From positions 70,151 to 134,150 of the forward strand of contig CAVYZX010000026.1 in the NCBI GenBank assembly GCA_963773035.1: 64,000 nt of DNA. Direction: 5' to 3'. The notes beneath the pieces are model-generated. The model was not told the origin of the DNA and made no database searches. It saw only the letters and a program-made list of their open reading frames with translations. Below, one piece after another: positions 2,940 to 33,390 of this stretch (position 1 is the stretch's first letter; each line of letters opens with the position of its first letter). Position numbers and translations under genes: made by a program. Source of the DNA: an uncultured Acidobacteriota bacterium. Lineage in GTDB: Bacteria > Acidobacteriota > Vicinamibacteria > Vicinamibacterales > CAVVIG01.

Positions 2940-3127
2940 GTTTCCGTCCTCTTCATTGAAAGTCGACAAATCGTAGCAGATTGCACATCTGTTGGTGTCC
3001 GCCGCGACAGCCCTGGGCCGCTCGAATTCGAACACCACGGTACGCCAATCGCGGGAAGTGTCTTGCTTAAAAACATCCTACGGTAGTAGGTTTCAACCGG
3101 ACAAAAAATTGGAACGGAGAATCCGAC

Positions 3128-4654: not shown

Positions 4655-4757
4655 CTTAGCTCAACCGTCGGGCCGCCGTTGCGGGGTTTTCCGTCCTCTG
4701 TCGCGTTAGGTGGCAGCGGAAAGACCAGTGAGCCAGACCACTGGGTTAGGAGGACGG

Positions 4758-5828
4758 ATGAAACGGCTGATCGTCACGCTGATGTTGCTCGCTGCGAGCG
4801 CACCGCTCGGAGCGCAATGGTTGAGATACCCGACTCCTGGCTTGCCGCGAACCCCCGACGGCAAACCCAATCTCACGGCGCCCGCACCCCGAACGGCCGA
4901 CGGAAAGCCTGACCTGTCGGGCCTCTGGCGGCTGAACGGTTTGGGGTATTCATTCAATATCTTCGGCGCCCAGAAGGTAGAGATGCTGCCATGGGCGGAG
5001 GCCGTGTTCGCCGAGCGCAGCGCGCGCTACGGGAAGGACGGCCCTTCGGCACACTGTCTCCCTCCCGGTCCGCGTGCGGGGCTGTTCGGTCAGGAACCGG
5101 TCAAATTCGTGCAGACACCCGGGCTGCTGCTCGTGCTCTACGAGGACGCACCCACCCGTCAGATCTTCATGGACGGCCGGGAACTTCCCAAGGATCCCAA
5201 TCCTGCCTGGATGGGGTACTCAGTGGCCCGTTGGGAGGGCGACACGTTCGTCGTCGAAAGCTCGGGGTTCAACGACAGAACCTGGCTGGATCTGACCGGC
5301 CACCCGCACACCGAGGCCTTGCACGTCACCGAGCGCTTTCATCGTCTGGACTACGGTCACATGCAGCTCGAGATGACGTTCAACGATCCGATGACGTACC
5401 GGAAACCCTGGACCATTGCGGTTGACGTCGAGTTGATCCCTGACACTGAGCTGCTCGAGAACGTGTGCAATGAAAACGAGAAGGACCGCGGGCATCTCGT
5501 CGGAACCGTCGCGGACGAAAAACAGGGAGAAGTGACGGTCTCGGAGGCGATTCTGTTCAACTATGCCGGCACCTACATGGCGGGACCGTTGGGCCACATT
5601 CGAATCACGGTCGATCACGGCCATCTGGCGTTCAATCTGTCCGGTGGCGGTGGACAATTTCTCGCGTTTGCGAAATCCGAAGAAGACTTCATTCTTCCCG
5701 CTTTGGGAGGAGTGGCGCTGAAGTTCGAGAAAGACGCGCACGGCGCGGTCGCGTTCCTTCGCATCACGTCGGTTGAAGGGGACATCAGAGCACCGCGGCT
5801 GCCCGACAACGCGGGCGGAATCGACTGA
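4758..5828 (+). CDS. Exported 'WEGD-motif' family protein, subfamily B, with an extra C-terminal domain of about 100 aa
   Basis: ATG at 4758 follows a TAGGAGG SD. Signal peptide MKRLIVTLMLLAASAPLGAQ. Motifs ADGKPDLSGLW, AHCLPPG, GYSVARWEGDTFVVE, LHVTERF, DP..Y.KPW, ENVCNENE. Confidence 0.8.
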   Translation: MKRLIVTLMLLAASAPLGAQWLRYPTPGLPRTPDGKPNLTAPAPRTADGKPDLSGLWRLNGLGYSFNIFGAQKVEMLPWAEAVFAERSARYGKDGPSAHCLPPGPRAGLFGQEPVKFVQTPGLLLVLYEDAPTRQIFMDGRELPKDPNPAWMGYSVARWEGDTFVVESSGFNDRTWLDLTGHPHTEALHVTERFHRLDYGHMQLEMTFNDPMTYRKPWTIAVDVELIPDTELLENVCNENEKDRGHLVGTVADEKQGEVTVSEAILFNYAGTYMAGPLGHIRITVDHGHLAFNLSGGGGQFLAFAKSEEDFILPALGGVALKFEKDAHGAVAFLRITSVEGDIRAPRLPDNAGGID

Positions 5829-15972: not shown

Positions 15973-16362
15973 TCAGTCTCTCAGTTTCGCCCCTTTGTCG
16001 AGCAGCAACTCGCGGAGCAGCGAGCGATGACAGCGTGACTGATCAGCGCAGTAACAGCCGACCGAGAAGTTGGTGTGGTGCGAGAGCGCAGCCAGCGTTT
16101 CCAGAACGCGTGCGATGTCCGGAGCCTTCATCTCGGCACGATAGCGCCGGGCGAATGCCTTCCACCCGCGTTCGTCCGCGACCGACAGACCTTCCTTCAG
16201 CAGCGCTTCACTCGGCGCGAGATTCGGCAGCCACACGTCGTAGAAGTTTCTCGATGCGAATTCGCTCTTGGGAACGCCCCGCGGTGGTCTGCGCACCGTG
16301 CCGATGCGAAGTCCTTCGGCAGGCGCCCGCTCGCTACCGAGGCGGACGATGCGAATGCTCAT
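15973..16362 (-). CDS. DUF488 family protein
   Basis: MSIRIVRL...YDVWLPNLAPSEALL...FSVGCYCAD..RCHRSLL is the characteristic DUF488 (YeaO-like) pattern. Confidence 0.85.
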   Translation of the reverse strand: MSIRIVRLGSERAPAEGLRIGTVRRPPRGVPKSEFASRNFYDVWLPNLAPSEALLKEGLSVADERGWKAFARRYRAEMKAPDIARVLETLAALSHHTNFSVGCYCADQSRCHRSLLRELLLDKGAKLRD

Positions 16363-16687: not shown

Positions 16688-16794
16688 CAAGTGCCTCGAC
16701 GCTAACACCGAACTGAAAATTGCTCTAAAAGGCGGAAGCCACACGAGAAGAATTCACGCCTTTCGATCGCAGCCCTAAAGGGCTGCGCCACGGA

Positions 16795-17775
16795 TCATCG
16801 AACACCCTTCGCAGCGGCTTCGGCCTTTGCGTCATCCACGCGCGCCCCTCTGAGGATGTTCTCCAACCCGTAGTTCCCTTCCGTGCAGGCGTACTCGTAG
16901 AGCGGACCTTGCATCTGTCTCATCGGGATCTCGGCGCTCCACGATCGCGTCCACGTCGTCGGATCGTCGGCGGTGAATTCGTAGCGAATCGTATCGGCAT
17001 CGACGCGCGTGAACCGCTCGGTCACGTGTAACTTCTCTCCCGACCCCCGGAACGCGGTCTTGTCGGTGTAGTTGACCGTGTCGACAACGAGGGTGTTGCC
17101 CTCCCAATGTCCGCGCGAGTCTCCGATCCATTGATGCAAGTTCGGTCCCAGATGGGGACGTCCATCGAGAGGAATGATCCGGGCGCTATGGATCGTCTCC
17201 GTCATGACGACGACGTAGCCAGGGCTCTGGATGATTTGCAGGTTGGCGTAGTAGACGGCCGGCAGCAGCGGTGGAATGTCGGCGCCCCACGTGAGGCAGC
17301 GCTCGAGCAGCGTGCGGTTCTCCGCGGCGTCGGCCGGATTCCCACGTCGCCTCGCGCGCTCGGCCGCGCGTTTCTGCCCCTCGGGCGTCAGGGGAGGAAT
17401 TCGTCCATCACGCGGGTCGGTAATTAACGAGGTGCGTAAGCCTGAAACGCCCTTCCTGTACGTCTCGGTCTGCCAGATGGCGTCGTCGTAGTGGATATTG
17501 TCTGCGGGTTGACCGAGGAACGCGTCGATCCGCTGCTTTTCATAAGCAGCGGCCTCCTCGGCAGTGAAGAATTCTTTCCCGGCAAACTCGGCCGGGCGCT
17601 CCAGCGGTGTGAACGTCGCGTTGGTCCAATATCCTTGCAGGTCCGGCTGTCCGTCTGGCGTTCGAGTCGGCGTCCAGCTCGACTTCGTCGACGGCGCCTG
17701 ACCGGCGGACTGGGCTCCCGCAAGAGCAACAATGGCGAGGACAACGGCCGGAATGCCGATGAATCGATATGCCAT
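16795..17775 (-). CDS. Exported 'WEGD-motif' family protein, subfamily A
   Basis: Signal peptide MAYRFIGIPAVVLAIVALAGAQ. Motifs TPDGQPDLQGYWTN, ERCLTWG, RIIPLDGRPH, GDSRGHWEGNTLVVDT, LHVTERFTRVD, EYACTEGNY. Confidence 0.85.
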   Translation of the reverse strand: MAYRFIGIPAVVLAIVALAGAQSAGQAPSTKSSWTPTRTPDGQPDLQGYWTNATFTPLERPAEFAGKEFFTAEEAAAYEKQRIDAFLGQPADNIHYDDAIWQTETYRKGVSGLRTSLITDPRDGRIPPLTPEGQKRAAERARRRGNPADAAENRTLLERCLTWGADIPPLLPAVYYANLQIIQSPGYVVVMTETIHSARIIPLDGRPHLGPNLHQWIGDSRGHWEGNTLVVDTVNYTDKTAFRGSGEKLHVTERFTRVDADTIRYEFTADDPTTWTRSWSAEIPMRQMQGPLYEYACTEGNYGLENILRGARVDDAKAEAAAKGVR

Positions 17776-17814
17776 GCCGAAATGATAGCCGAGATGAGGA
17801 GCCAGGGCTCGTTC

Positions 17815-18819
17815 CTACCTCTTCAACGGCGATCGTTCCTCGGCCCGCGCTCCGGACAGTATGGCCGCGATGCCGTAGTTCCCTTCGTGGCACGCATATT
17901 CGAACACCGGACCCACAATCTTCTTCATGGGAATCTCTGCCGACCACGATCTCACCCACGTCGTCGGATCGTCGACGGTGAAGTGATAGAGGAGCGTGTC
18001 CTCGTCAACGCGAGTGAATCGCTCGACGATGTGGAGATTCTCACCGGAGCCTCTGAAATTCGTCCTGTCCGTGAAGTTGGTGGTGTCCACGACCAGCGTG
18101 TCGCCTTCCCACCGGCCGCGCGAGTCTCCCAGCATCTGACGGATGGTCTTGCCGATGTGAGGCCGGCCGTCGAGCGGGATGATTCGCGGGTCGTGAATCA
18201 TCTCGACCACGATGGCGATCGACCCTGGGCTCTGCACAATCTGATAATTGCTGCTGTAGTTGGCCGGCATCATGGGCGGCCCCGCCTGCGGCATGGAGAT
18301 GCAGCGTTCGGCCAGCGATCGATTCTCGGCGCCGTCGAAGGCCCCACCCATCCGCCGGCGCGCCTCAGCACGTTGCGCGCTGTTCCGCTCGCCCTCGGGC
18401 GTCAAGGGCGGCACCCGCCCGTCGCGCGGGTCAACTATCAAAGAAGATCGCCGGGTCGATACAGACTTGCCTCGCTCCCGCCAGAACTCGTTGTACGCGC
18501 GGCCGACGTCGGTTTCGGCCGGACCGTCGCGGCGATCGGCATTCACTTCGGTCACGGCGCGGCGCTCGAATTCATCCGCTTCCGCGTCCGTCAAGAACTC
18601 CTTCCCCGCGAACTCCGCGGGGCGTTCGAGAGGCGTCACCGTGGCGTTGGTCCAGATCCCCTCGAGGCTTGGCCGGCCGTCCGGCGTGCGCGGGAGAACC
18701 CGGGGCCGTGCCGCTGAGGAAGGAGCCTGTGCGACAACCGGCCCAGGCCCGATGCCAACGGCCACACCGACAAACGTCAATGCACCGACTGAGGCGAGAA
18801 TTCCGAGATTCATCTGCAA
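17815..18819 (-). CDS. Exported 'WEGD-motif' family protein, subfamily A
   Basis: Signal peptide. Motifs TPDGRPSLEGIWTN, ERCISMP, RIIPLDGRPH, GDSRGRWEGDTLVVDT, LHIVERFTRVD, EYACHEGNY. Lies 39 nt upstream of its paralog. Confidence 0.85.
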   Translation of the reverse strand: MQMNLGILASVGALTFVGVAVGIGPGPVVAQAPSSAARPRVLPRTPDGRPSLEGIWTNATVTPLERPAEFAGKEFLTDAEADEFERRAVTEVNADRRDGPAETDVGRAYNEFWRERGKSVSTRRSSLIVDPRDGRVPPLTPEGERNSAQRAEARRRMGGAFDGAENRSLAERCISMPQAGPPMMPANYSSNYQIVQSPGSIAIVVEMIHDPRIIPLDGRPHIGKTIRQMLGDSRGRWEGDTLVVDTTNFTDRTNFRGSGENLHIVERFTRVDEDTLLYHFTVDDPTTWVRSWSAEIPMKKIVGPVFEYACHEGNYGIAAILSGARAEERSPLKR

Positions 18820-18835
18820 CCTCCTTCGGGCACAG

Positions 18836-19369
18836 CTAAGGCCTTTGACTCCTCGGTGGTGTAATCCCGTTCAACCGTAGATACACGGCCATCTGACCGT
18901 AAATGTCCCACGTGTGGCCGATGAGAAAGTAGATCACGCGTGCTTTCGATGAAGGCCCCAGATAGGCATTCGTCTGGATGATCTGCATCATTGATTGATC
19001 GGTCTGTTCCTTGATGAGCGCCGAGCCGTAGTCGAACGAGTCGGAGAGCGCCTTGAGGATCTCGGCTTTCGACGTGGCGCCGCGGTTGATGGACGGCGCC
19101 GCGGCTTTTCCGCCGAAGGACTGCAAATACATGATGTTTCCGCCGGCGACGTGCAGGATCTGTTGTCCATAGTCGCGCTGCGCGGGTGTGCTTTTGAACG
19201 CGAACTTCTCTTCGGGCATCGCGTCGGCGATCTTCATCATGATCGCCTTCTGATCGTCCCAGTCCTTCAGCAGTTCCGCGTTCAGGTTTGCCGACTGCCC
19301 GGCAGTCGCGCTTGGCATCGCGAGAAACGAGGCGCCGATGAGGACGAACGTCAGGAGGATCCTTCTCAT
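18836..19369 (-). CDS. DinB-family protein with signal peptide
   Basis: Trimmed to MRRILLTFVLIGASFLAMPSATA. ILHVAGGN... and LIGHTWDIYGQMAVYLRLNG resemble the DinB_2 four-helix-bundle His motifs. Confidence 0.7.
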   Translation of the reverse strand: MRRILLTFVLIGASFLAMPSATAGQSANLNAELLKDWDDQKAIMMKIADAMPEEKFAFKSTPAQRDYGQQILHVAGGNIMYLQSFGGKAAAPSINRGATSKAEILKALSDSFDYGSALIKEQTDQSMMQIIQTNAYLGPSSKARVIYFLIGHTWDIYGQMAVYLRLNGITPPRSQRP

Positions 19370-19391
19370 TGCGTATTCCCTTGGATAGCCG

Positions 19392-20345
19392 CTATTGCCG
19401 TGGCGGTGGCGCCCCACCCCGGCCGGCCGGAGGTGCAGGAGGCGCGGGAGGACCACCACAGTTGGACGTGCACGGCGGCGGAAGCACGTACTTGTCCTTG
19501 AGCTTCTTGCGGAACTCGGGATACATCGTTTCCGGACCGCCGAGCACCGCTTCGACCGGGATGTTGCGTTTCTCGGTCAGCTCGTTCACGAACGGATTTT
19601 TTTCCGGCAGGTAGTGGGGAACGATGGCCAGGTTCTCGTGCAGGTAGGGCAACTCCTCGATCGGTTCGCACGCCGTCGCCGGGAAGATGCTCGCACCGCT
19701 TGGATCCAGCTTGAACGGCGTGGTCAACACGTACGGCTCCGCAAAGATGGCAGGGTCCTCCATGATGCCCATCACGGTCAGGATGTCTCCGTGGCGAACG
19801 AAGTACTCGGTGATGGTCGCTTCGTCGCTGTTGAATCCTCGATGACGCTTGATATCGCCAACCTTGAAGTGTGTCGTGTGCACCCTGAGCGTATCGCCTT
19901 CCCAGTCACCGGTCGTAAAACCGCCATGCGGATGAGGAGCGTTCTTGGACGGATGCGACCGGCCGTCCATCCAGATTGTCGTCGCGTCGCGATCGATCCA
20001 TCCCGCGATGTTCCACGCCACCAGTTTCTGCGTAATCGGATCGGGCTCGATGGTGATTTGCAGGCCGAAGGGGCCGGTGTGCGTGTAGAACGGCGTGTAC
20101 ATCTGACACTGACGCTCCGTCACCGACAGAGCGGCAATGTTGTAGCTCAAAGCTTTCGCGCGGCCATCTTCGTTGAACGGCATCCCGAGGTAGTCAACCG
20201 GCTCTTGAGCGTAGCTGTTGTCCTGGTGGTTCCTCTTCGCCCAAAGGCCCGTCAGATCGACCTGGGCAAACACCGGCACTCCAGACAGCAGCGCGGTCAG
20301 CACCAGCATGGCGCTTCGAACGCGGGGCAATTTGATGATGGTCAT
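19392..20345 (-). CDS. Exported divergent 'WEGD-motif' family protein, subfamily D (member D2), with C-x3-C plus a polyproline tail
   Basis: ORF 19392..21002 trimmed to MTIIKLPRVRSAMLVLTALLSGVPVFAQ at 20345. The upstream 219 codons overlap the neighbouring gene in another frame. Motifs DLTGLW, RQCQMY, TTGDWEGDTLRVHTTHF, EDP, ATACEP. Tail is CTSNCGGPPAPPAPPAGRGGAPPP. Confidence 0.75.
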   Translation of the reverse strand: MTIIKLPRVRSAMLVLTALLSGVPVFAQVDLTGLWAKRNHQDNSYAQEPVDYLGMPFNEDGRAKALSYNIAALSVTERQCQMYTPFYTHTGPFGLQITIEPDPITQKLVAWNIAGWIDRDATTIWMDGRSHPSKNAPHPHGGFTTGDWEGDTLRVHTTHFKVGDIKRHRGFNSDEATITEYFVRHGDILTVMGIMEDPAIFAEPYVLTTPFKLDPSGASIFPATACEPIEELPYLHENLAIVPHYLPEKNPFVNELTEKRNIPVEAVLGGPETMYPEFRKKLKDKYVLPPPCTSNCGGPPAPPAPPAGRGGAPPPRQ

Positions 20346-20356
20346 GAGTGTCTGTC

Positions 20357-21184
20357 CTACCAGCGCGACGAGCAGGGCGTGGGATCCCATTTCGCGCCGT
20401 TCGGTTCCTTCTTGAAATGAAGCCCGATCAGACGCGGCTCGCGGAGGTAGACCGGATCCTCGATCTGCGTCGTGATCGCGAGCCATTCGTCTCCGTTCTG
20501 GCGCTTGAAGACATCCCAGTACTCGGTCAGCGTCGTGTTTGCGCTGTACGGGATACCGTTCTTCCGCAAGTAACCGGGACGAAGATGCGTAGTGACGACT
20601 TTCAGCGATCCGCCCGTCGGCGCCGGCGCCGGCACGTTCCCCGCGGTTCGCGGCACAGGCCGCAGAAATAGCGGGGTGTTCGGCCGAGGGGTTTGCCACA
20701 CGCCCACCGAATCTCCCTGCCACGTCGCTGGCGCGCCACGCTCTCCCTTCCAGTCGCCAAAGTGGAGCATGCGAGTCTGCATGCCCGCATCGGTCTCGAC
20801 CTTCAGCGTGTTCTCGTCCTGCCAGGTGACATGCAGCCGGCCAGGAACGCTCATGAGGGCTGGGGCGCCGTAAGACTTGCACTGTTCGCCAGCCGCTTCG
20901 TCCTTCGCCGGATCCCAAGCGTCGGCGATCTTCTTCGCCTCGAGATTGATCGGGATGTACATGTAGTCGCCTTTGGCAGGCGTCACCATCCGCCAGCGCC
21001 AATCCTGGGTGACGACCGACACCCAGTACCCGGTCAAATCGATCGGAGCCGCGGCTTTAGGCGTCCGAGAAACAGCAGGTGGACCACCGCCCCGCTGCGC
21101 ATGAACGTAGGCGACCGCACCAGACGCCACCACAACCGATGTCACCGCCGCTATCACCGTGCGCAACACACCATCCTCCTGCAT
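20357..21184 (-). CDS. Exported divergent 'WEGD-motif'-related protein, subfamily D (member D1)
   Basis: Signal peptide. Motifs DLTGYW, EQCKSYG, WQGDSVGVW, SLKVVTTHLRPGYLRKNG, EDPVYL, PTPCSS. Lies 11 nt upstream of D2. Confidence 0.7.
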   Translation of the reverse strand: MQEDGVLRTVIAAVTSVVVASGAVAYVHAQRGGGPPAVSRTPKAAAPIDLTGYWVSVVTQDWRWRMVTPAKGDYMYIPINLEAKKIADAWDPAKDEAAGEQCKSYGAPALMSVPGRLHVTWQDENTLKVETDAGMQTRMLHFGDWKGERGAPATWQGDSVGVWQTPRPNTPLFLRPVPRTAGNVPAPAPTGGSLKVVTTHLRPGYLRKNGIPYSANTTLTEYWDVFKRQNGDEWLAITTQIEDPVYLREPRLIGLHFKKEPNGAKWDPTPCSSRW

Positions 21185-21223
21185 TTACTTTTCACTTACT
21201 TTCCACTTTCCACTTTCCACTTT
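21185..21223 (-). repeat. A/G-rich (AAGTGGA)n leader element (family R4, copy 1) filling the whole MBL-D1 intercistronic spacer
   Basis: Minus strand reads TAA-aaagtggaaagtggaaagtggaaagtaagtgaaaagtaa-ATG. A 31-nt block (21217->21187) is identical to 58835..58865. Confidence 0.8.
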
Positions 21224-22252
21224 TTACTTCTTCTGCGTAAGTTCCCTGTAGACCAGCTCGACGAACCTGTCGGTGGTCCACGGACCCGAGTCCGATCCGT
21301 ATCGCCGGCGGTACGACAACGTAGGATTCGCAGCCTTCACCTGTTCCAGCGTCTTGCCTTGATCGATCAGATCCTGAATCCGGTCGCGGATCACCGTCAC
21401 CATGTCCCGGTACTCCAGCAGATCGATTTTGTCGAGTACGCGACCGTGGCCGGGGACCAGGAGGGTACGGTCGGGATTCCACTGAATGGGAAGGTTGGGA
21501 ATGCTCAAGTCCATCAGGTGGTTCAGCGCGTCGATCTCACCCTGCAGCGTCCCACCCTTTTCCACATCGATCACCGGGAAGCGAGTGGTGTCGATGATGT
21601 CGCCGGTCGCGATCACGTCGCCGCGCCGGAAAAAGACGATGGTGTCGCCGTCGGTGTGTGCCGCCGGCTCGTGAATCACCTGGATTCCTTCGCCGTTCAA
21701 GTACATGGAATAGGTCTTGGCAGCAAACGTCTTCGTTGGCCACAGTCCGAGCGGGAATAGAGACTGTTTGCCGGTTGGAGCAGACATCCGCGTCAGGACG
21801 TTTTCGTGCGCCAGCACGCTGGCGCCGCCTGAATTGGTCACCAGGTCGTCGCTCAATCCAGCCCCGGCCGCAATCGCACCAGCCAGGATGCTGAGTCCCG
21901 CTTTCGCGATCGTCTCGTTGCCACCGACATGGTCGGCTTCCATGCTTGTATTAATGATGTAGCGAACCGGCAACGGCGTGATGCGCCGGATCGCCGCCAA
22001 CACTTTGTCCGACATCGCCGTCGAACCAGAATCCACCAGAATCACGCCCACTGGACCGATCTGGATGACGATGTTGCCGCCGGCTCCTGCGATGACGTAG
22101 AAGTTCGGCCGCAGCTCGATGACGTCGAGAGCGTCACGGCTGGGCTCCTGGGCGATCGCGTTCGGCGCCCGGACCGCAGGAGCGAGAATTGCCGCGAACG
22201 TGAGCAGCCAGGCCGCAACCCGCCCGCTGAAAAGACTAGCCATTCGGTTCAC
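21224..22252 (-). CDS. MBL-fold protein, exported, with a degenerate metal motif (SMEADH instead of HxHxDH)
   Basis: Signal peptide MNRMASLFSGRVAAWLLTFAAILAPAVRA. Overall collinear with the MBL at 1860..2939, but the motif reads NTSMEADHVGGN. Keeps AHTDGD and PGHG. Confidence 0.75.
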   Translation of the reverse strand: MNRMASLFSGRVAAWLLTFAAILAPAVRAPNAIAQEPSRDALDVIELRPNFYVIAGAGGNIVIQIGPVGVILVDSGSTAMSDKVLAAIRRITPLPVRYIINTSMEADHVGGNETIAKAGLSILAGAIAAGAGLSDDLVTNSGGASVLAHENVLTRMSAPTGKQSLFPLGLWPTKTFAAKTYSMYLNGEGIQVIHEPAAHTDGDTIVFFRRGDVIATGDIIDTTRFPVIDVEKGGTLQGEIDALNHLMDLSIPNLPIQWNPDRTLLVPGHGRVLDKIDLLEYRDMVTVIRDRIQDLIDQGKTLEQVKAANPTLSYRRRYGSDSGPWTTDRFVELVYRELTQKK

Positions 22253-22303: not shown

Positions 22304-23884
22304 ATGACTCGGTTGCCTCGCCATCCATGGCTGGCCGCCTGCCTCCCGGCCGCGCTCGCCGGCGCCCTGACAGCCATTGCGTTCCTCGATAACACCGGGA
22401 GGAACCTGGTCGTAAGGCGGACGCTGCTTGCGGCCGCTTTCATCATTCTGGTGTGGAACGCGGTGCTGACCGTACGAGCGCGCCGCCGGTTCACCGTCAA
22501 CCTCCACCTGCGGCCGCAGCACTACATCCAGGCAAGCGCACAGGGCTTGGTCCTGCTGTATTGGGGCTGGTACTGGCGACCGGTTTATGACGCCGTCCCG
22601 CTCATCGCTGCACAGCTGATCTTTGCCTACGCCTTCGACATACTCCTCGGCTGGTCGCGCCGCGGCACTTACACACTTGGCTTCGGTCCCGTCCCCGTGA
22701 TCTTCAGCATCAACCTGTTCCTCTGGTTCAAGCCCGACTGGTTTTACCTACAGTTCTTGATGCTGGCGGCAGGCTTCACGGCCAAGGAGCTGATTCGCTG
22801 GAAGCGGGACGAACGGGTCGTCCACATCTTCAACCCCTCCTCTTTCGCGCTCGCATTGATCTCGCTCGGACTGATCCTTACGGGTACGAGCGATATGACG
22901 CGAGGGCAGGACATCGCGATCAGCCAGTTCTATCCACCTCATATGTACTTGATGCTGTTCCTGATTGCCCTGCCCGGGCAGTTCTTGTTCGGGGTCGCGT
23001 CCATGACGTTGTCAGCGGTCCTAACGACTTACCTGTTCGGCGCGGTGTATTTCGCCGTGACAGGCACGTACTTTTTCTACGACTCGTTTGTGCCGATCTC
23101 GGTTTTCCTCGGCATGCACCTTCTTTTCACGGATCCATCGACGTCGCCGCGTTCGGAGCTCGGACGTGTGATCTTTGGCGTGCTCTACGGGCTGAGCGCG
23201 GTTGCTTTGTACCAACTGCTGGGTGCAGCAGGAGTGCCGACTTTCTACGACAAGCTCTTGCAGGTGCCACTCCTGAACCTCTCGGTCCGGCTGTTGGATC
23301 GGGCGTCGCGCTCGAGATGGCTCGAACCATTCAACCCCGCGCGACTCGGTCGATCGCTCGCTCTGCGCCAGCGTCACGTGGCGTACCTGGCGCTGTGGGC
23401 AGTCGTGTTCGCACTGTTGAGCTCGACTCAGGGTGTCGGCGATCATCATCCGGGGCAGTGGCTGCCGTTCTGGGAGCGGGCGTGCAGAGAGGGTCGACCG
23501 CGCGCGTGTGCGTATCTCGCGAGTCTGCAGTCGATCTTCTGCAACGCGGGATCCGGATGGGCGTGCAACGAAGCCGGCATCTTCCAACACGAACGCCCGC
23601 CAGCGGGCCGTGGCGAGATTCCGTCCGATCTCGCGCGAATGAGCGCTTCATTCGCGAGAGGTTGCAATCTCGGGTTCGTGCCCGCGTGCCGGAATGCGGT
23701 CCGGACATCAAACGGGAACCGGCCGTTCGAGCGGTCGGTGCCGACGCTGTCCGACTATCAGATCGTCCTCCGGGGCAGCAAGGGGCCGATCACCGATCGC
23801 ACTACGGCAGCGCTGAACGCACGAGCCTGCGAGCAGGGCTGGCCGGACACATGCGGTCGCACCACAAGCGCGCTGCGAGATTGA
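22304..23884 (+). CDS. Polytopic membrane protein with a C-terminal Cys-rich repeat domain
   Basis: About 9-10 hydrophobic segments (HIFNPSSFALALISLGLIL etc.). C-terminal region of about 130 aa with repeated C-x(4-8)-C pairs (ACREGRPRACAYL, FCNAGSGWACNE, GCNLGFVPACRN, ACEQGWPDTC). Confidence 0.7.
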   Translation: MTRLPRHPWLAACLPAALAGALTAIAFLDNTGRNLVVRRTLLAAAFIILVWNAVLTVRARRRFTVNLHLRPQHYIQASAQGLVLLYWGWYWRPVYDAVPLIAAQLIFAYAFDILLGWSRRGTYTLGFGPVPVIFSINLFLWFKPDWFYLQFLMLAAGFTAKELIRWKRDERVVHIFNPSSFALALISLGLILTGTSDMTRGQDIAISQFYPPHMYLMLFLIALPGQFLFGVASMTLSAVLTTYLFGAVYFAVTGTYFFYDSFVPISVFLGMHLLFTDPSTSPRSELGRVIFGVLYGLSAVALYQLLGAAGVPTFYDKLLQVPLLNLSVRLLDRASRSRWLEPFNPARLGRSLALRQRHVAYLALWAVVFALLSSTQGVGDHHPGQWLPFWERACREGRPRACAYLASLQSIFCNAGSGWACNEAGIFQHERPPAGRGEIPSDLARMSASFARGCNLGFVPACRNAVRTSNGNRPFERSVPTLSDYQIVLRGSKGPITDRTTAALNARACEQGWPDTCGRTTSALRD

Positions 23885-24016: not shown

Positions 24017-24463
24017 TTAGGGCTGCGGCGAAGGCTTCTGATTCAGTTCGTAAGGCGCCCCGGTGCCGGACGATCCCATGAACAGCCTCTTGCCATCTTC
24101 AAACGTGATATCCCGCCCATTCGCCCTGTGCGTCCCGTCCTTCGCCTGGTAACCGTCAATGGCGACCACAGTACCTGGCAGAAGGGACTTTCTCGTGAAG
24201 CCGCGCCGAAAGAGCACGTTTGGAGTGCCCGCCTCGAACGCCCAGTTCTCCACTTTGCCGTCCGGCTTCTTGACATCCAGGTGCAGCCAGACGTGCGGGT
24301 TGACCCACTCCATCTTCGTGACGGTCCCCTTCATCGTCACGGGCTTGTTCGCGTCGAACTCGGCGGCGAACGCGTGGTGCGCCGACAGCGACGCGGCTGT
24401 GACGACCAGAGAGAGACCGAGCCCCGCGGCAGCAACGACGAGCTTCGTTTGCATCTGATTCAA
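24017..24463 (-). CDS. Small exported DUF6152-like protein; predicted mature N-terminus is HHAFAAEFD
   Basis: Signal peptide ...VVTAASLSA followed by HHAFAAEFD, then GTVTKMEWVNPHVWLHLDV. Paralog of 26832..27296. The family name is from memory of the AHHSF...NPH pattern. Confidence 0.75.
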   Translation of the reverse strand: MNQMQTKLVVAAAGLGLSLVVTAASLSAHHAFAAEFDANKPVTMKGTVTKMEWVNPHVWLHLDVKKPDGKVENWAFEAGTPNVLFRRGFTRKSLLPGTVVAIDGYQAKDGTHRANGRDITFEDGKRLFMGSSGTGAPYELNQKPSPQP

Positions 24464-24499: not shown

Positions 24500-25471
24500 T
24501 CACCTTCGGTACCACTCGTGGAGCTTGTCGCCTTCCGGAACCTTACGCGTGATATCGACGATGAGCGTCTCACCCTCCCAGTGCTTGACCAGCGGCTGCC
24601 TGCGCAGGCCGCCGTACATGAACTCTTCAGCGAACTCCATGCAGCGGTATTCGAGCAGCTGCGCGTTTGGTTCCAACCGTCGATAGAGCGGCATGGAGAT
24701 CTTCCACGGCCCGGTGAACACGTTTGGATCCTCGATGGTGACTTCGTACTGGATCGCGTCCTTTGTGATCGGGGTGAAGCGCTCAATCAAATGCAGCGCT
24801 TCGCTGTGATAGTTGCCGGCCCTATCGAACCAGTTCTTGCCGTTGAACTCCGTGACGTCCACGACCAGCGTATCGCCTTCCCACCGGCCGACCGAATGTC
24901 CCATGTAGGTCAGGTCCGGCGGTTCTTCCACCTCGTCGAGGTGGATCGTACGGCCGGTGCTGCTGAATTCGAACGCCATGTGAATCTTGTTGGCGCTCTG
25001 GAAGATCTGGAAAGGATAGGGCATGTACATCGCGCGCGGAATGCCGGGAAGATAGCACTTGAGCTCGGGATCGCGGTCGATCCAACTCTCGCCGTTCTCT
25101 TTCTTGATTTTCGCCGCCTCCGGCTTATAAGGAATGAGGCCGCCGCCTTCGATAACACCTACCGAACCGGGAACTCCGCCCGCTGCACCGAGCGCAAGCA
25201 CGGGCGCCGCGGCTACTCTCGTGTATTCGAATGGATAGGCGCCTTGTTGCGTGACCGCAGCCGGTCGCGCCTCATGAGCCTCGAGGTCCCAATGCGCTTC
25301 GTTCAGCGCCTGCCAGATTCCGCTGAAATCCGGCTTGCCATCGGCTGTACGCGCCACGGTTGGCGTTTGTGACCGGCGACCGGACTGCGTCACTGCCAAG
25401 GTGACAAGGGCGCCAACCACCGCCGCTGCTGCCGCAACAGCAATCGTCGAACCGCTGAACTGACGTGCCAT
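24500..25471 (-). CDS. Exported 'WEGD-motif' family protein, subfamily B
   Basis: Signal/TM N-terminus. Motifs ADGKPDFSGIW, LKCYLPGIP, GHSVGRWEGDTLVVDVTEF, LHLIERF, EDPNVFTGPW, EYRCMEF. Confidence 0.85.
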   Translation of the reverse strand: MARQFSGSTIAVAAAAAVVGALVTLAVTQSGRRSQTPTVARTADGKPDFSGIWQALNEAHWDLEAHEARPAAVTQQGAYPFEYTRVAAAPVLALGAAGGVPGSVGVIEGGGLIPYKPEAAKIKKENGESWIDRDPELKCYLPGIPRAMYMPYPFQIFQSANKIHMAFEFSSTGRTIHLDEVEEPPDLTYMGHSVGRWEGDTLVVDVTEFNGKNWFDRAGNYHSEALHLIERFTPITKDAIQYEVTIEDPNVFTGPWKISMPLYRRLEPNAQLLEYRCMEFAEEFMYGGLRRQPLVKHWEGETLIVDITRKVPEGDKLHEWYRR

Positions 25472-25480
25472 GAACGGCTC

Positions 25481-26746
25481 CTATCTGGTCAACGGATTGG
25501 CTTCCTCTCCAGTGTCGGCAAATCCGCCGGCGAATCCGCCGCACCCCGCGCTGCACAATGTGGCCGGATCCGGCCCACGCCGTTGAGCGAAAGCTTTCTC
25601 CTCCGCGCGCGCGCCCGCGAGCAGGGCTGGCATACCGTAGTTACCTTCGTGGCACCGCGGTTCCTTGTAGATGCGGTTGGCCCGATCGGGCTGCTTGGTA
25701 TATTCCTGTTTCACTGTCCATGGACGGGTCCACGTGGTTGGATCCTCGATCTTTACGACGTACTCCAGCGTGTCCGCATCGACACGAGTCCAGCGCTCGA
25801 CCAGGTGAAGGTTCTCGCGCGAACCCTGGAAATCGGTCTTGGGCGAAAAATTGGTCACATCGACCACCAGCGTCTGACCTTCCCATCGGCCTCGCGAGTC
25901 GCCCCACCATTGGCGGATGTGCTCGGGGAGGTGCGGCCGATCGGTGATGGGAATCACTCGCTGCCACCCTTGGCCCTGCCCCGTGTCGTAGAAGATAGAA
26001 ACCGCCTGGGGCGACTGAATGATCTGCGGGAAGAAGCCGGCGGCTCCGCCGAAGTCCGGGAGCATGGCGGCCATGCATCTCTCACCGAGCGTCCGATCCT
26101 CGGGGCCGTCGGCGCGATTGATGGCGCCCCCGCCTGCGCCACCGGCGGCCACGTACGATGGCGGCGTTTCCGGACGTTTGGGTGAGGGCGGGCTGTACTT
26201 TCCGCCTTCGCAGCCTGGGAGCTTGTTCTTGCAGACGTCGGTCGGTTGAAGCAAGGCGAGCTGGAACTCACGCATGGCCTGCCTGCGCTTCATGGCTTCC
26301 GGAGTCAGCGGCGGAATCTTGCCGTCCGGAGGATCGATGATCAGCGACGTGCGGCGGCCCATCGGTTTGTGCGTCAGAAAGATGTTCGTCGCGTAGGCCC
26401 CACCCACGTCTTGCTCGCTTCCTCGCTCGTAGCGCCGCACGTCTTGGCTCACGATAGCGGTGCGCTGCTTGTCGAGCTCCGCCCGCTCTTCGTCAGTGAA
26501 GAACTCTTTGCCGGCGTAACGGGCCGGCCGTTGCAATGGGACCTCGTAGGTGTTGGTCCAGATCCCTTGCAGATCTGGAGCGCCCCATGACGTCTTCGGT
26601 GCAGGGCCCGATTTCTTTGCCGTTCCGTCGAGTGGTGCCGGTGTCTGCGTCTGACCTTTGACTGAAGGCGGTCCAAGCTTCAGCAGGAACGCCAGCACGA
26701 GCAACGCCACCGCCACACCAATCGACTGCAGAGATCGCTTGGCCAT
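25481..26746 (-). CDS. Exported 'WEGD-motif' family protein, subfamily A (longest A member; carries a Cys- and Pro-rich insertion)
   Basis: Trimmed to MAKRSLQSIGVAVALLVLAFLL. Motifs APDLQGIWTN, ERCMAAM, GDSRGRWEGQTLVVDVTNF, LHLVERWTRVD, PRCHEGNY. Insertion is ...CKNKLPGCEGGKYSPPSPKRPETPP... Confidence 0.85.
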   Translation of the reverse strand: MAKRSLQSIGVAVALLVLAFLLKLGPPSVKGQTQTPAPLDGTAKKSGPAPKTSWGAPDLQGIWTNTYEVPLQRPARYAGKEFFTDEERAELDKQRTAIVSQDVRRYERGSEQDVGGAYATNIFLTHKPMGRRTSLIIDPPDGKIPPLTPEAMKRRQAMREFQLALLQPTDVCKNKLPGCEGGKYSPPSPKRPETPPSYVAAGGAGGGAINRADGPEDRTLGERCMAAMLPDFGGAAGFFPQIIQSPQAVSIFYDTGQGQGWQRVIPITDRPHLPEHIRQWWGDSRGRWEGQTLVVDVTNFSPKTDFQGSRENLHLVERWTRVDADTLEYVVKIEDPTTWTRPWTVKQEYTKQPDRANRIYKEPRCHEGNYGMPALLAGARAEEKAFAQRRGPDPATLCSAGCGGFAGGFADTGEEANPLTR

Positions 26747-26831
26747 CTCAAAGCTCCTGGGAGGCCCTTTCTCTACACCCACCCCTTCGTACTGTCAAGG
26801 AGTTGCCCAGCTCCAACTTCGCGGTGAACTG

Positions 26832-27296
26832 TCATCGCGATCGAACGGGCGCGTCGGCTGCCTTGGGATTCTTGGCCTTCCAACGATCCAGGGCCTGTTG
26901 ACCGATGTTGCCGACGTCGTTCGGCAGCGTAATGCTGCCGTCCGCATGCTGCACGAATTTCAAGACACCTCCCGGTCGACCGTCTTTGAGCGGCCCGGCG
27001 AGAACCATCACCTTCGAACCGACCTTGTAGGTGTCGATGTTGATCCCCTTGGGAATGAGCTGCGCGACGGCAGCGGCCTCGAACGACCAGTCCGTCTGCG
27101 TCCCGTCAGGATTGGTCACCGTGATGGTGAGCCACGAATGCGGGTTGATGAGCGCCCATTGTTTGACCACGCCCGTGACGGCAATTTCGGCGTCGGGCCG
27201 CATGTCGAACATGTTGAACGAATGATGCGCGAGCACCGGCTTACTGGCGAGTGCACCAACAAGGACGACAACGGTTCCGACAGATCGCAGATTCAT
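26832..27296 (-). CDS. Small exported DUF6152-like protein; predicted mature N-terminus is HHSFNMFD
   Basis: Signal peptide ...ALASKPVLA followed by HHSFNMFD, then GVVKQWALINPHSWLTITV. Starts 22 nt after the stop of the upstream subfamily-C gene. Confidence 0.75.
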   Translation of the reverse strand: MNLRSVGTVVVLVGALASKPVLAHHSFNMFDMRPDAEIAVTGVVKQWALINPHSWLTITVTNPDGTQTDWSFEAAAVAQLIPKGINIDTYKVGSKVMVLAGPLKDGRPGGVLKFVQHADGSITLPNDVGNIGQQALDRWKAKNPKAADAPVRSR

Positions 27297-27318: not shown

Positions 27319-28254
27319 CTACCGCGATTTGCTGCTTTCCGGCGTTCTCGTCACGTCGTTCTGAGGCTGCTTGTGGCCCTGTTCCCCAGGAAGAATCGTC
27401 GTGGTTTTGCCGTCAGCTCCGAGCACGTCGTTGCTCGTCAAGGCGCAGTCCCAATAGCGAATCCGATACTCGTAGTCGGCCTTGACGTAAGACATCGCGA
27501 CGTTCCATGGAGCGGTGAGGCCGACCGAATCGTACATGGTCGCCTGCACGACGATGCGGTCGGGCCGGCCGTTCTGGCCTTTGACGCGCTGCCACACCTC
27601 GATGCCCTGGAGCTCTGCGCTGTTGTCGGGATACCCACGCAAGTAGTCCGCAGCCTTGACGGCGGTCGTCCAGACGACGAGCTTGTCGCCGTCCCAGAAA
27701 CCGATTGAATCACCGAGCCATGTGTGCCCTTCAGGTGTGGCGTGAGGGCTGCCGTCGGTGTAGACGCGGCGCGTCTCGTTCATGTACTCCTGCATCAGCC
27801 ATTGCTGTTTCACACCGAGCGCGAATTCCTTGTGATAGGGCTCGACGAGCCAGCGCGGGTAGGCCGACGGCTCGCAGTGCGTCAGCCGGTCGTAGTAGAC
27901 CTCGCCGATCTCACGTTCCTGTCTTTGCTTTTCTTCGTAGTTGGCGCGATAGGCGGGCGAGAGCGGCGCGTCGACCGGATGGGCCATGCTCATGGTCGCG
28001 ATGCCCGACTGCCAGATCCCGGACCAGTCCGGAAGCGAGGTGACTGTATGTTTGGTGCCGCCGTTGGCGTTCTTGAGGAGAGCGTTGTAGTGCTCCTCGG
28101 CTGACGCATATCGCGCCGGCGGCTGAACAACCCGTTCACGCTGTTCCGGCAACGACCCAAGCGCCTCACGTTGCGCGAGCGCACTGGGCATGAACGCGAC
28201 GGCACAGGATAGACAGAGGCCGGCGAGCGCCAACGACCTGGTGAGAACCCTCAT
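27319..28254 (-). CDS. Exported 'WEGD-motif' family protein, subfamily C (W-D-G-D variant)
   Basis: Trimmed to MRVLTRSLALAGLCLSCAVAFMPSALAQ, with a GGAGG SD upstream. Motifs LPDWSGIWQ, THCEPSAYPRW, LGDSIGFWDGDKLVVWT, YWDCAL. Confidence 0.8.
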   Translation of the reverse strand: MRVLTRSLALAGLCLSCAVAFMPSALAQREALGSLPEQRERVVQPPARYASAEEHYNALLKNANGGTKHTVTSLPDWSGIWQSGIATMSMAHPVDAPLSPAYRANYEEKQRQEREIGEVYYDRLTHCEPSAYPRWLVEPYHKEFALGVKQQWLMQEYMNETRRVYTDGSPHATPEGHTWLGDSIGFWDGDKLVVWTTAVKAADYLRGYPDNSAELQGIEVWQRVKGQNGRPDRIVVQATMYDSVGLTAPWNVAMSYVKADYEYRIRYWDCALTSNDVLGADGKTTTILPGEQGHKQPQNDVTRTPESSKSR

Positions 28255-28411
28255 ACAACCTCCGGTTTCAGCGCTAAAGAATAACCAGTCGGTCCACCCC
28301 ACGCCACTTCCTTCAGTCACGACTCTGGAGCCCCGCTCAAGTCACTACCGCGGGAATGCGCCGGGACGTTCTAGTCCTGTGATGTGATCCGTCTAATATC
28401 ACCTCATATAT

Positions 28412-31471: not shown

Positions 31472-32512
31472 CTAGCGGCTCGATTCCTTCTCTTGTGCGC
31501 GTGCGCCGGTCAGGATTCCCTCGAGGCCGGTATTGTCTTCATGACACGCGTATTCGTAAATCTGTTCGCTCGTGTGCTTCAACGGAATCATCACGGTCCA
31601 CGGCCTCACCCAAGTGGCCGGATCGTCGAACGTCACTTCGTACTTGATCGTGTCCGCCGCCACTCGGGTGAGACGCTCCGTGACATGCAGGTTTTCAGTC
31701 GACCCCATGAGGCGACTCTTGGGTGAGTAGTTCTTCGTGTCGATGACGAGCGTGTCGCCCTCCCAGTGTCCCCGTGAGTCGCCCAGCCATTGCTGGATGT
31801 TCGAACCGACGTGCGGCCGGTTGTCGAGCGGAATGATCCGCGAGTCGTGAATCGTCTCCATCGTGATCACGACATGGTCGCGGGTCTGCTGGATCTGATA
31901 GTAGCTGTTGTAGCCGGCACCAAGGCGCGGGGAGCCGAACGTGATGCAGCGCTCGGACAGGCTGCGATCTTCCCACGAGTCTGCGAGCGGACTGTCGAAG
32001 CTTGGCGCGGGTCTGGCGGCAGCACGTCGCTGCGCTTCCGGGGTGAGCGCAGGAATCCGACCGTCGGCCGGGTCGGTAATCAGCGACGTGCGGTTGTCGA
32101 ATTCTCGTTCGACCAACCAGAAATGATTGTAGTCGCCGGTGCGGCCGTCGACCGAGGTGAACGATTTCGCGCGCTCGAGCGCAGCTTCGAACACGCTGTC
32201 ACCGAACGCGGCGTCGCCATCGCCGCTGAAGAGCTCGGCGGCAGCGGCCTTCACGGCTGCCAGCTCCTCGGGCGTCAGCACCGCCTTGCCGGCAAGCGAC
32301 GGTGGCCGTTGCAGCGGCGTCGCCACGTTGTTCCCCCAGACGCCCTGCAGATCGGGCTGACCATCGACGGTACGAGAAACCGTCCACCGGCCGTCCTTTG
32401 CAGCAGGCGCCTTGCTTGTCGATTGCGCCAGGACCGAAGGCGATATCCACGTCAACGGGCCCGCACCGAACACTGTCAATGTTGCGATGATTACGACGTG
32501 TTGTCGGCTCAT
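31472..32512 (-). CDS. Exported 'WEGD-motif' family protein, subfamily A
   Basis: Trimmed to MSRQHVVIIATLTVFGAGPL. Motifs VDGQPDLQGVWGN, ERCITFG, RIIPLDNRPH, GDSRGHWEGDTLVIDT, LHVTERLTRV, EYACHEDN. Confidence 0.85.
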   Translation of the reverse strand: MSRQHVVIIATLTVFGAGPLTWISPSVLAQSTSKAPAAKDGRWTVSRTVDGQPDLQGVWGNNVATPLQRPPSLAGKAVLTPEELAAVKAAAAELFSGDGDAAFGDSVFEAALERAKSFTSVDGRTGDYNHFWLVEREFDNRTSLITDPADGRIPALTPEAQRRAAARPAPSFDSPLADSWEDRSLSERCITFGSPRLGAGYNSYYQIQQTRDHVVITMETIHDSRIIPLDNRPHVGSNIQQWLGDSRGHWEGDTLVIDTKNYSPKSRLMGSTENLHVTERLTRVAADTIKYEVTFDDPATWVRPWTVMIPLKHTSEQIYEYACHEDNTGLEGILTGARAQEKESSR

Positions 32513-32580
32513 GTGAAGCTCCTTGCTTCTCACCTCACAGAAAGCGCTCGTCTTGTCGCCCCATCTGGTTTGGTTGCAAA

Positions 32581-33390
32581 TCAAGGGGTGGCGATGGGCG
32601 TGGTCGCCATGCCTTCTGTGATCTCGATCTCAGTGCCCCACGGGTCGGTGATGTAGACGATTCGGAGACCCGATGCGTTGGCGCTGTTGCGGATGGCGGC
32701 ATCGGTTTTGATGCCCGCTGCCTGCAACTTAGCGACGAAGGCATCGATGTTCTTCACCTCGAATCCGATGTGATCGACCGAGCGGCCCTTTGTCGGAGCC
32801 TGGGCCGTTTCCGCTTTGGCCATCGCGATTTCCGTGCCCGGCACGTTGGCCGTCTCGAACGGACCTCGCTTCCCTGCCACGGCGCCAAAGGTCTGCACGT
32901 ACCACTTCTGTGCTTCCAGCGGATCCGGAACGCTCAGATGAATATGGTGCATTTGAATCGGTGCAGAAATCGATGTGTTTTCGTAGATCTCAATCCGGAC
33001 ATTGTCGGGGCCCGTCAGAAATCCCTGACCGACCTGCGGGTTGTTCGCTGGTTCCCACGTCAAGCCGGCCGCCTTCCATTTGGCGACCGAACCGGCAAAG
33101 TCTCTGACGTAGAAGCCGAAGTGATTCATCGTCGATCCAACCGTCCCTCCGGTGGGATCCTGTTTCCGAAGCAGGATGTAGATGCCTGGAAACTGGACCA
33201 TCGTGAGCTTCTCGCGCTGCACGATGATGCCGCCGACGGTCGTCCAGAAACGCGACTGGACGTCCACATCAGTCGCATTGAGGTGGATGTGTCCGATGGC
33301 TGCGCCGGCGGCGTTGGGCGGCGCGAGTTGGGCGAACGCGGGCGTCGGAATGAGTGCGGCAAGAGCGAGCAGGAGAAGAGGTGTCTTCAT
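32581..33390 (-). CDS. VOC (glyoxalase/bleomycin-resistance/dioxygenase) family protein, two domains, exported
   Basis: Signal peptide MKTPLLLLALAALIPTPAFA. Repeated IGHIHLNA / MHHIHLSV / VDHIGFEV beta-alpha-beta-beta-beta module starts. Confidence 0.8.
   Translation of the reverse strand: MKTPLLLLALAALIPTPAFAQLAPPNAAGAAIGHIHLNATDVDVQSRFWTTVGGIIVQREKLTMVQFPGIYILLRKQDPTGGTVGSTMNHFGFYVRDFAGSVAKWKAAGLTWEPANNPQVGQGFLTGPDNVRIEIYENTSISAPIQMHHIHLSVPDPLEAQKWYVQTFGAVAGKRGPFETANVPGTEIAMAKAETAQAPTKGRSVDHIGFEVKNIDAFVAKLQAAGIKTDAAIRNSANASGLRIVYITDPWGTEIEITEGMATTPIATP

Follow-up and report, generated by a model that had tools for sequence, protein, structure and literature searches.

Does a run of closely spaced genes for exported proteins mark a single functional unit? 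This question is raised by six consecutive minus-strand genes at positions 16795-22252 of a 64,000-nucleotide stretch of DNA from an uncultured Acidobacteriota bacterium of the Vicinamibacterales (contig CAVYZX010000026.1), the whole of which we refer to as the window. The genes encode a metallo-beta-lactamase (MBL)-fold protein, two divergent members of a family of unannotated proteins, the WEGD family (D1 and D2), a DinB-family protein and two A-type members of the same family (A1 and A2). An initial annotation, made from the sequence of the window, read the block as one operon with, probably, a shared periplasmic or cell-surface function. Comparison with other genomes leads us to a different view. 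The block is probably a composite, in which a conserved cassette for an exported metallohydrolase (MBL-D1-D2) is followed by separate DinB, A1 and A2 genes. The coordinates of all features are given in Table 1.

A conserved three-gene cassette

We compared 43 loci anchored on D2, obtained from a scan of one genome per species. They come from Acidobacteriota/Vicinamibacterales, Gammaproteobacteria, a Rhodospirillaceae metagenome-assembled genome (MAG) and a "delta proteobacterium" MAG. By tblastn, the order MBL, D1, D2 on one strand was found in 38 of the 43 loci, and the remaining loci are at contig ends or apparently frameshifted. All five of the first contexts examined (L004-L008) have this order. 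DinB-A-A was found downstream in none of the 43. Thus, the proposed conservation of gene order stands for the first three genes of the block and fails for the last three. When all flanking open reading frames (ORFs) were clustered, no other family occurred in more than 7 of 46 loci. Anchoring on A2 was unsuccessful because the A family is too paralogous; the contexts of its close homologs (L001-L003) had no common neighbors.

Mean pairwise identity over the 36 complete triads is 78% for MBL, 74% for D1 and 78% for D2. The distance matrices of the three proteins correlate (r = 0.59-0.73), so the genes have been inherited together. In most loci only 60-141 nt lie between the D1 stop codon and the beginning of mature D2. 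This leaves room for a signal peptide only, with a D1/D2 gap of about -7 to +11 nt, and suggests that D1 and D2 are translationally coupled. Judged by these comparisons, MBL-D1-D2 is an autonomous three-gene cassette.

The MBL protein and its predicted metal site

The MBL protein belongs to Pfam Lactamase_B (PF00753; 44 bits against a cut-off of 22.7). In place of the canonical H-x-H-x-D-H motif it has NTS-M-E-A-D-H-VGGN (residues 101-112). The protein had been called degenerate. The description fits the motif and not the protein as a whole, as the variant is kept in all of the cassette-linked orthologs and is therefore not a sign of decay. The pattern NT[SGT]M[DEN]xDHxGGN is found in the window MBL and 42 such orthologs, in which position 116 is Ser, Gly or Thr and position 118 is Asp, Glu or Asn, never His. 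The motif was checked in 44 aligned sequences and individual positions were counted over 45-46. Two sequences with a canonical HxHxDH in the alignment proved to be unrelated second MBLs and were set aside.

The downstream ligands equivalent to His196, Asp221 (or Cys221) and His263 are present. Among the aligned MBLs H108, D218 (45/45) and H269 (46/46) are invariant, D107 is replaced by Glu in two sequences only and H149 is nearly invariant. H199 occurs in 38 of 45 sequences; Thr takes its place in combination with Asn at residue 105, and the two residues (D/E or N at 105, H or T at 199) covary in six of seven cases.

The best PDB sequence matches of the MBL are 8d2z and the chlorothalonil dehalogenase Chd (6uxu), a mononuclear-Zn MBL-fold enzyme. 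The catalytic Zn ligands of Chd are Asp116, His117, Asn216 and His257, and His114 is highlighted alongside them in the proposed mechanism (PMC12784990). In the HMMER alignment to 6uxu these four ligands correspond to D107, H108, D218 and H269 of the window protein, and His114 to E105. The two proteins share the MBL fold and a C-terminal helical extension, and the first His of HxHxDH is Ser in both (NTSYHGDH in Chd; NTSMEADH in the window MBL, S103). They differ in that cassette MBLs have Glu or Asp in place of the general base His114, Asp in place of Asn216 and H199 where Chd has Gln. A predicted Sec-type signal also sets the window MBL apart from Chd, and MBLs of this kind are invariably accompanied by genes for two barrel proteins, a partnership that is not known for Chd. 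Overall similarity is low (28 bits, E = 7e-6). From these alignments, the MBL appears to have lost the two site-1 histidines of HxHxDH while keeping the positions of the Chd-type single-Zn site, and the most fitting description is that of a Chd-like MBL with site 2 retained.

The best-scoring NCBIfam models are TIGR04559 (78 bits, cut-off 280) and TIGR04558 (53 bits, cut-off 300), which describe SoxH-related quinoprotein relay zinc metallohydrolases, periplasmic MBL-fold proteins whose substrate is unproven. The class B beta-lactamase models (B1/B2/B3) give 19.6-34 bits against cut-offs of 100-240. Given these scores and the 28 bits to Chd, overall similarity is far too low for membership in any of these families. 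The neighborhoods examined encode no PQQ (pyrroloquinoline quinone) dehydrogenase or SoxYZ-like carrier.

Several other identities were considered and rejected. A role in the "quinoprotein relay system" (in the literature, of the Pseudomonas ped cluster) was dropped because the NCBIfam score is far below the cut-off. The JGI label "cyclase" on MBL orthologs is automated and supported by nothing that we found. The C-PTE "cyclase" belongs to another enzyme family, the amidohydrolases, and is closest to isatin hydrolase. The soil-metagenome MBL phytases Mblp01 and Mblp02 are PF12706 proteins and not of the MBL clade.

The window encodes a second MBL-fold protein with a hydrophobic N-terminus, a canonical HFHFDH and a Lactamase_B score of 71 bits. 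Its identity to the cassette MBL is only 23%, and none of the adjacent genes encodes a barrel protein.

A large family of predicted calycin-like barrels

D1 and D2 had been taken for divergent relatives of the A proteins, and profile comparisons bear this out: hhalign gives 98% (E = 2e-14) for D1 with D2, 96% (E = 2.7e-9) for D2 with A and 82% (E = 1e-5) for D1 with A. None of A1, A2, D1 and D2 has a Pfam or NCBIfam match, and 46 A-type and 38 D2-type homologs likewise showed no family match at E up to 1. PDB profile sequence searches with A, D2 and D1 found no match (a lipocalin at E = 0.44 is noise). The family has very many members. Homologs of A2 form more than 8000 clusters at 90% identity, of which none carries a Pfam domain or a functional name, and the D2 profile recovers 2513 clusters at 50% identity. 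By blastp against its ORFs, the window alone contains about 12 WEGD/calycin-like paralogs, including the four of the block. With the eight beyond the block, this unannotated family of exported proteins shows an extreme degree of local expansion. In one of the eight, on the plus strand at 4710-5828, a DUF3471-like C-terminal domain scores 27 bits, below the threshold of 29.3.

The AlphaFold2 model of A2 (predicted local distance difference test, pLDDT, 78; predicted template-modeling score, pTM, 0.74) begins with a first strand carrying G-x-W, from which a helical insert of about 120 residues leads to an antiparallel barrel (178-287); a C-terminal helix completes the model. A Foldseek search of PDB with this model returned only calycin-type barrels (tardigrade SAHS, FABP/CRBP, UnaG, streptavidin and nitrophorin), at a best E of 7e-4 and a template-modeling (TM) score of about 0.5. 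For D2, only the barrel core of the model was used (pLDDT 59), and it matches FABP/SAHS/avidin folds. The closest structures in Foldseek were 5z4g, 1crb, 5xn9, 4i3b and streptavidins. Based on these models, we consider with moderate confidence that A, D1 and D2 are oversized calycin-like barrels. They would share with calycins (FABP, lipocalin, avidin, nitrophorin and SAHS) the up-and-down antiparallel barrel, which in calycins is closed and has 8-10 strands, the first-strand G-x-W and a secreted or periplasmic location. They differ from them in being twice the size (270-330 aa), in the helical insert after the first strand and in a conserved disulfide-type Cys pair. Sequence similarity to calycins is undetectable and TM scores are 0.5-0.6.

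In calycins, the first-strand G-x-W packs against a basic residue on the last strand. In the barrel proteins the G-x-W is invariant (G48/W50 in A, G33/W35 in D2, TGYW in D1) and every barrel protein of the block has a conserved Cys pair (C102 and C271 in D1; A1 also has two conserved Cys). The D2 alignment has 80 invariant columns, including C80, C226, H138, H168 and H244, and the motifs PHxHGGFTTGxWEGD, GDIKRHRGF and HYLPGK. D2 ends in a low-complexity Pro/Gly/Arg-rich tail (19392-19480, minus strand; …PPPCTSNCGGPPAPPAPPAGRGGAPPPRQ). Its length varies among homologs through GRGAAPP-like repeats (alignment columns 340-485), and the C-x-x-x-C at the D2 end is lost in several proteobacterial homologs.

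Fusion proteins and a second cassette type

Among the best 150 D2-like representatives, 20 are at least 550 aa long, and 15 of these 20 have a C-terminal Pfam Lactamase_B domain after the D2-like part. These D2'::MBL' fusions, of about 600 aa, fall into at least 15 clusters and carry predicted signal peptides. By tblastn, their N-terminal halves are 34-40% identical to D2. Their C-terminal halves share 39-44% identity with the window MBL and start precisely where the mature MBL starts. The tail of unfused D2 is similar to the linker between the two domains of the fusions. The fused MBL domains share an NT[SGN]x[D/H..]xDHxGGN motif, and two of them have the Chd motif S-x-H-x-D-H (NTSFHLDH and NTSAHADH).

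The fusions derive from a second gene order in which D2' directly precedes MBL'. We refer to this D2'-MBL'-D1' arrangement as type II and to the MBL-D1-D2 order of the window as type I; locus L013 carries both. In combination, the fusions and the strict synteny are strong evidence for a physical and functional partnership of D2-type barrel and MBL, and it is very likely from these sequences that the two work as one enzyme. Searches of Pfam, NCBIfam, PDB and the accessible literature yielded no account of the barrel family, the cassette or the fusions, in agreement with the initial remark that no described pathway of this composition is known.

DinB, A1 and A2 adjoin the cassette at a deletion junction

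The fourth gene of the block encodes a DinB protein (Pfam DinB, PF05163, 38.4 bits against 23; DinB_2, 30.7 against 24.8) that matches PDB 6iz2 (E = 3.6e-5). Its closest homologs are all uncharacterized environmental sequences. Characterized DinB/YfiT members are cytoplasmic, thiol- or metal-dependent enzymes; unlike these, the window protein has a predicted signal peptide.

Is this gene part of the same unit as the cassette? In the nearest relatives of the window (L004, L055 and L056, with MBLs 93-97% identical), the order is MacB-type permease, MBL, D1, D2, a variable segment, DinB, A, A and DUF488. The distance from D2 to DinB is 1.3-2.5 kb, and the segment between them contains all or part of a PF00144 beta-lactamase-family gene (Table 1). 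We compared the junction with L004 (5780-6000 and 8300-8460). In the window, only "cgg" separates the D2 stop codon from about 20 nt homologous to the sequence upstream of the L004 DinB ATG. As the segment is present in the relatives, we conclude that the 22-nt gap is a recent deletion junction and not an ancient operon feature.

DinB homologs were further surveyed in 80 metagenome loci, 56 with enough downstream room and 43 with upstream sequence. A-family genes directly follow DinB in only 1 of the 56, so DinB-A-A is not a conserved module. Type-II cassettes are divergent from DinB in 5 of the 43 loci with upstream sequence. The five DinB proteins are 56-59% identical to that of the window and the start codons of the divergent genes are 14-143 nt apart, so that each promoter must be situated within the other gene or at its very edge. 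In L031, a DinB gene (35% identical) is divergent from a type-I MBL. Thus, DinB occurs beside MBL/barrel cassettes at least three times in differing arrangements, and a functional link is possible on this evidence. We rate it no higher because DinB-superfamily genes are generally numerous in such genomes.

These observations bear directly on the idea that the six genes are one operon whose products, MBL, D1, D2, DinB and the two A proteins, are all required for one periplasmic pathway or complex. In its favor are the common strand, gaps of at most 54 nt with unstructured spacers and no terminator-like site between genes, the MBL-D1-D2...DinB-A-A-DUF488 neighborhood of the three close relatives and the DinB genes divergent from cassettes of both types. 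We nevertheless consider it unlikely, given that DinB-A-A is absent downstream of D2 in the wider sample, another gene intervenes between D2 and DinB in the close relatives (with opposite-strand ORFs in L004 and L056), the tight junction is itself a deletion and A-family genes rarely follow DinB. Moreover, at about 12 A-family genes per 64 kb, chance adjacency is expected. A six-gene conserved operon, as initially proposed, is therefore not upheld; only MBL-D1-D2 is conserved. Of the shared function proposed for the block, what survives applies mainly to the three-gene unit, and DinB, A1 and A2 are lineage-specific neighbors. A weaker association of DinB with such cassettes does recur in the type-II arrangement, so this part of the idea may still hold.

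Gene starts, export signals and intergenic sequences

The layout of the block in the initial annotation, six consecutive minus-strand genes with gaps of 39, 11, 22, 16 and 39 nt, matches the ORF list and the reverse-strand sequence exactly. Two starts may need revision. D1 more probably starts at GTG 21169, since it is preceded by GGAGG at a distance of 5 nt and the corresponding codon is the start in relatives; this would widen the MBL-D1 gap to 54 nt. A1 may start at ATG 18813, with a gap of 22 nt. The GC content of third codon positions (GC3) is 0.74-0.79 in five of the six genes (background GC is 61-62%), and we therefore regard these five ORFs as genuine coding regions. For D2 it is 0.66, scorable only on a longer ORF (19392-21002) that overlaps D1.

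Signal peptides had been assigned to all six products and are predicted here as well: every N-terminus has a hydrophobic core followed by a small-residue cleavage-type site. The 12-residue core has a Kyte-Doolittle hydropathy of 2.1-2.9 and is within the first 25 residues in all six. These segments and the Cys pairs of the barrels are compatible with export of the products.

The spacers inside the block have no RNA structure, and the fold energy of the MBL-D1 spacer is 0 kcal/mol. The GC-rich hairpin just past the A2 stop codon folds at -19.5 kcal/mol with a z-score of only -1.6. It may mark where the transcription unit ends; lacking a T-run, it was not called by the terminator scan. A scan for consensus promoters and terminators gave counts no higher than in shuffled sequence and was hence uninformative. 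The six genes may be co-transcribed in this strain, as nothing in the sequence or the intergenic RNA speaks against it.

The purine-rich MBL-D1 spacer contains tandem GTGGAAA heptads. Related arrays with differing copy number are found at the same junction in L055, L056, L010 and L005, and in L005 the array extends into the MBL reading frame (…KKLKSGEVESGK). The L012 junction has another heptad, AGCCGAA, in three copies. A translation or regulatory element and slippage-prone DNA are both possibilities.

Proposed function of the cassette

We propose that MBL-D1-D2 is a horizontally mobile cassette for an exported multi-component metallohydrolase. MBL would be the catalyst, probably with a mononuclear metal-hydroxide centre and with a carboxylate (His or Asn in relatives) at the general-base position. 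D1 and D2 would be paralogous barrels, probably translated in a coupled fashion and probably forming a heterodimer, that act as partner subunits of the hydrolase. Their most likely role would be to capture a small hydrophobic or poorly soluble periplasmic substrate and present it to the metal site, or to complete that site. DinB, A1 and A2 would be a separate exported set from the same paralog-rich genomic island. Deletion of a serine-hydrolase gene would have brought them within 22 nt of D2, and they may now share the D2 transcript in this strain.

A similar design is known from SdsA1-type MBL-fold alkylsulfatases, which carry an SCP-2-like hydrophobic-ligand domain: an MBL catalytic domain is combined with a hydrophobe-binding module that recruits a poorly soluble substrate. 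The cassette differs in that the module is a predicted barrel and not SCP-2, and that it is encoded by separate genes or as an N-terminal fusion. We found no sequence relationship between the two.

Extending the proposal beyond the window, we suggest tentatively, at somewhat less than even confidence, that type-I MBL-D1-D2, type-II D2'-MBL'-D1' and the D2'::MBL' fusions constitute an undescribed class of exported multi-component metallohydrolases. The barrels would be obligate partners from a superfamily massively expanded in Vicinamibacterales, and an exported DinB would be a recurrent third partner.

Several observations weigh against the composite reading and the function proposed for the cassette. 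Confidence in the D2 model is low (pLDDT 59) and the fold matches are weak (TM 0.5-0.6, E about 1e-3), as is the similarity of the MBL to Chd (28 bits). The conservation of D2, with many invariant His, Asp, Glu and Arg residues, suggests that it is more than a passive binding barrel. The fusions are of the paralogous type-II lineage (34-40% identical to D2) and not of the window type. A separate D1 is absent from both readable fusion loci (L052 and L054), so the fusions do not support a role for D1, and we infer the association of unfused MBL, D1 and D2 from sequence. Finally, the three close relatives retain DinB-A-A-DUF488 near the cassette and DinB recurs beside type-II cassettes, so DinB, A1 and A2 may not be functionally independent of it.

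The D2 conservation raises the alternative that D2, with D1, is the catalytic or the metal- or cofactor-binding component and that the site-1-deficient MBL is an accessory or scaffold. The 80 invariant columns and motifs resembling an active or metal site are what this idea predicts, as is an MBL without canonical HxHxDH. It is improbable, as the MBL keeps a complete and strongly conserved set of Chd-type mononuclear ligands, two fusion MBL domains have the exact Chd motif, and D2 resembles no known enzyme family in either sequence or fold.

Slightly less probable still is a role of D1 and D2 as inhibitors, immunity proteins or chaperones, by which the exported hydrolase would be kept inactive, or folded, once in the periplasm. 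There is a precedent in the periplasmic calycin-type metalloprotease inhibitors encoded beside serralysin genes, and the predicted calycin-like fold, the strict co-occurrence with the enzyme gene and the export signals on MBL, D1 and D2 all agree with it. A stable D2-like::MBL fusion in many lineages, however, ill fits a dissociable inhibitor. Furthermore, two different barrels are each conserved (74-78% identity), and at 270-317 aa D1 and D2 are far larger than known calycin inhibitors.

Very unlikely as a full account is that everything beyond MBL-D1-D2 is a chance product of rearrangement in a paralog-rich, fast-changing island: close relatives do differ on both sides of the triad (a MacB permease versus a divergent membrane protein and extra WEGD/DUF6152 genes upstream; a PF00144 gene that is full-length, fragmented or absent downstream), but for DinB-A1-A2 this is compatible with the composite reading and thus no rival for MBL-D1-D2, and the recurrent pairing of DinB with type-II cassettes argues for some selection on DinB adjacency.

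Flanking genes and other features of the window

A DUF488-N3a gene (153 bits) is located 432 nt downstream of A2. DUF488 occupies the corresponding place in all three close relatives (L004, L055 and L056), which makes the right-hand boundary a stable one in this lineage. On the other side, a polytopic membrane protein with a Cys-rich C-terminal region and weak NQR2/RnfD-like similarity (23 bits, below cut-off) is encoded divergently from MBL, where the three relatives have the MacB-type permease on the same strand. Given this difference and the variable downstream segment, both flanks of the triad are undergoing rearrangement. A Ser/Thr protein kinase gene, fused to PD40/Tricorn-type beta-propeller repeats, is shared with L055 and L056, whose contigs are thus syntenic with the window over tens of kb.

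Two DUF6152 genes (114 and 88 bits) are directly downstream of WEGD-family genes, as are others at L003, L006, L016, L031 and L054. In L054, the DUF6152 gene overlaps the D2'::MBL' fusion gene by 4 nt. Likely cleavage of the 24017-24463 product after …SLSA would give a mature protein starting with His-His (HHAFAAEFD), reminiscent of N-terminal-His metal sites. We found no literature on DUF6152.

Table 1. Features of the window and of compared loci. Positions without a locus name refer to the window.
Feature	Positions	Strand	Description	Basis
MBL gene	21224-22252	minus	predicted exported MBL-fold metallohydrolase	Pfam Lactamase_B
MBL-D1 spacer	21185-21223	minus	purine-rich, 3 tandem GTGGAAA heptads	sequence
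D1 gene	20357-21184	minus	predicted exported, divergent member of the WEGD/calycin-like barrel superfamily; second cassette gene	hhalign to D2
D2 gene	19392-20345	minus	predicted exported calycin-like barrel; third cassette gene	alignment and AlphaFold2 model
D2/DinB junction	19370-19391	minus	22-nt deletion scar	comparison with L004
DinB gene	18836-19369	minus	predicted exported DinB/YfiT-family four-helix-bundle protein	Pfam
A1 gene	17815-18819	minus	predicted exported WEGD-family barrel protein	blastp against window ORFs
A2 gene	16795-17775	minus	predicted exported WEGD-family barrel protein	homologs, AlphaFold2 model, Foldseek
GC-rich hairpin	16768-16788	minus	GCAGCCC-UUUA-GGGCUGC, 7 nt past the A2 stop	fold energy
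Further paralogs	24500-25471, 25481-26782, 27319-28320, 31472-32584, 43402-44295, 62551-63588	minus		blastp
Further paralogs	4710-5828 and, weakly, 39074-40507	plus		blastp
DUF488-N3a gene	15973-16362	minus		
Membrane protein gene	22304-23884	plus	polytopic, 526 aa	
DUF6152 genes	24017-24463, 26832-27296	minus		
Second MBL-fold gene	1860-3038	minus		
Kinase/beta-propeller gene	33937-36588	plus	883 aa	
Variable segment of L004			full PF00144 beta-lactamase-family gene, 442 aa, and two opposite-strand ORFs	
Variable segment of L055			PF00144 gene, 408 aa	
Variable segment of L056			136-aa PF00144 fragment and opposite-strand ORF	
Type-II cassette head-to-head with exported DinB	L122 3243-6537; also L112, L124, L132, L105			

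Significance

Few soil bacteria are more abundant than the Vicinamibacterales and related Acidobacteriota. They are nevertheless poorly understood, and much of their exported proteome is annotated as hypothetical. Through the comparisons made here, a large unannotated family gains a predicted fold class. One sub-branch of these barrels is also assigned a partner that can be tested, namely an MBL-fold hydrolase whose metal site is Chd-like; the two are linked by strict synteny across phyla and by gene fusions. The locus also illustrates that tight spacing alone can mislead, since one junction in this block is a recent deletion scar. The principle of combining an MBL enzyme with a hydrophobe-binding module is already known from the SdsA1 type, whereas for the barrel family, the cassette and the fusions we found no earlier description. 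The cassette is of interest as it occurs abundantly, and with strong conservation, among dominant lineages of soil bacteria. If our reading is correct, it would represent a new architecture for the recruitment of substrates to MBL enzymes, and would provide a handle on the small molecules that these oligotrophs process in the periplasm.

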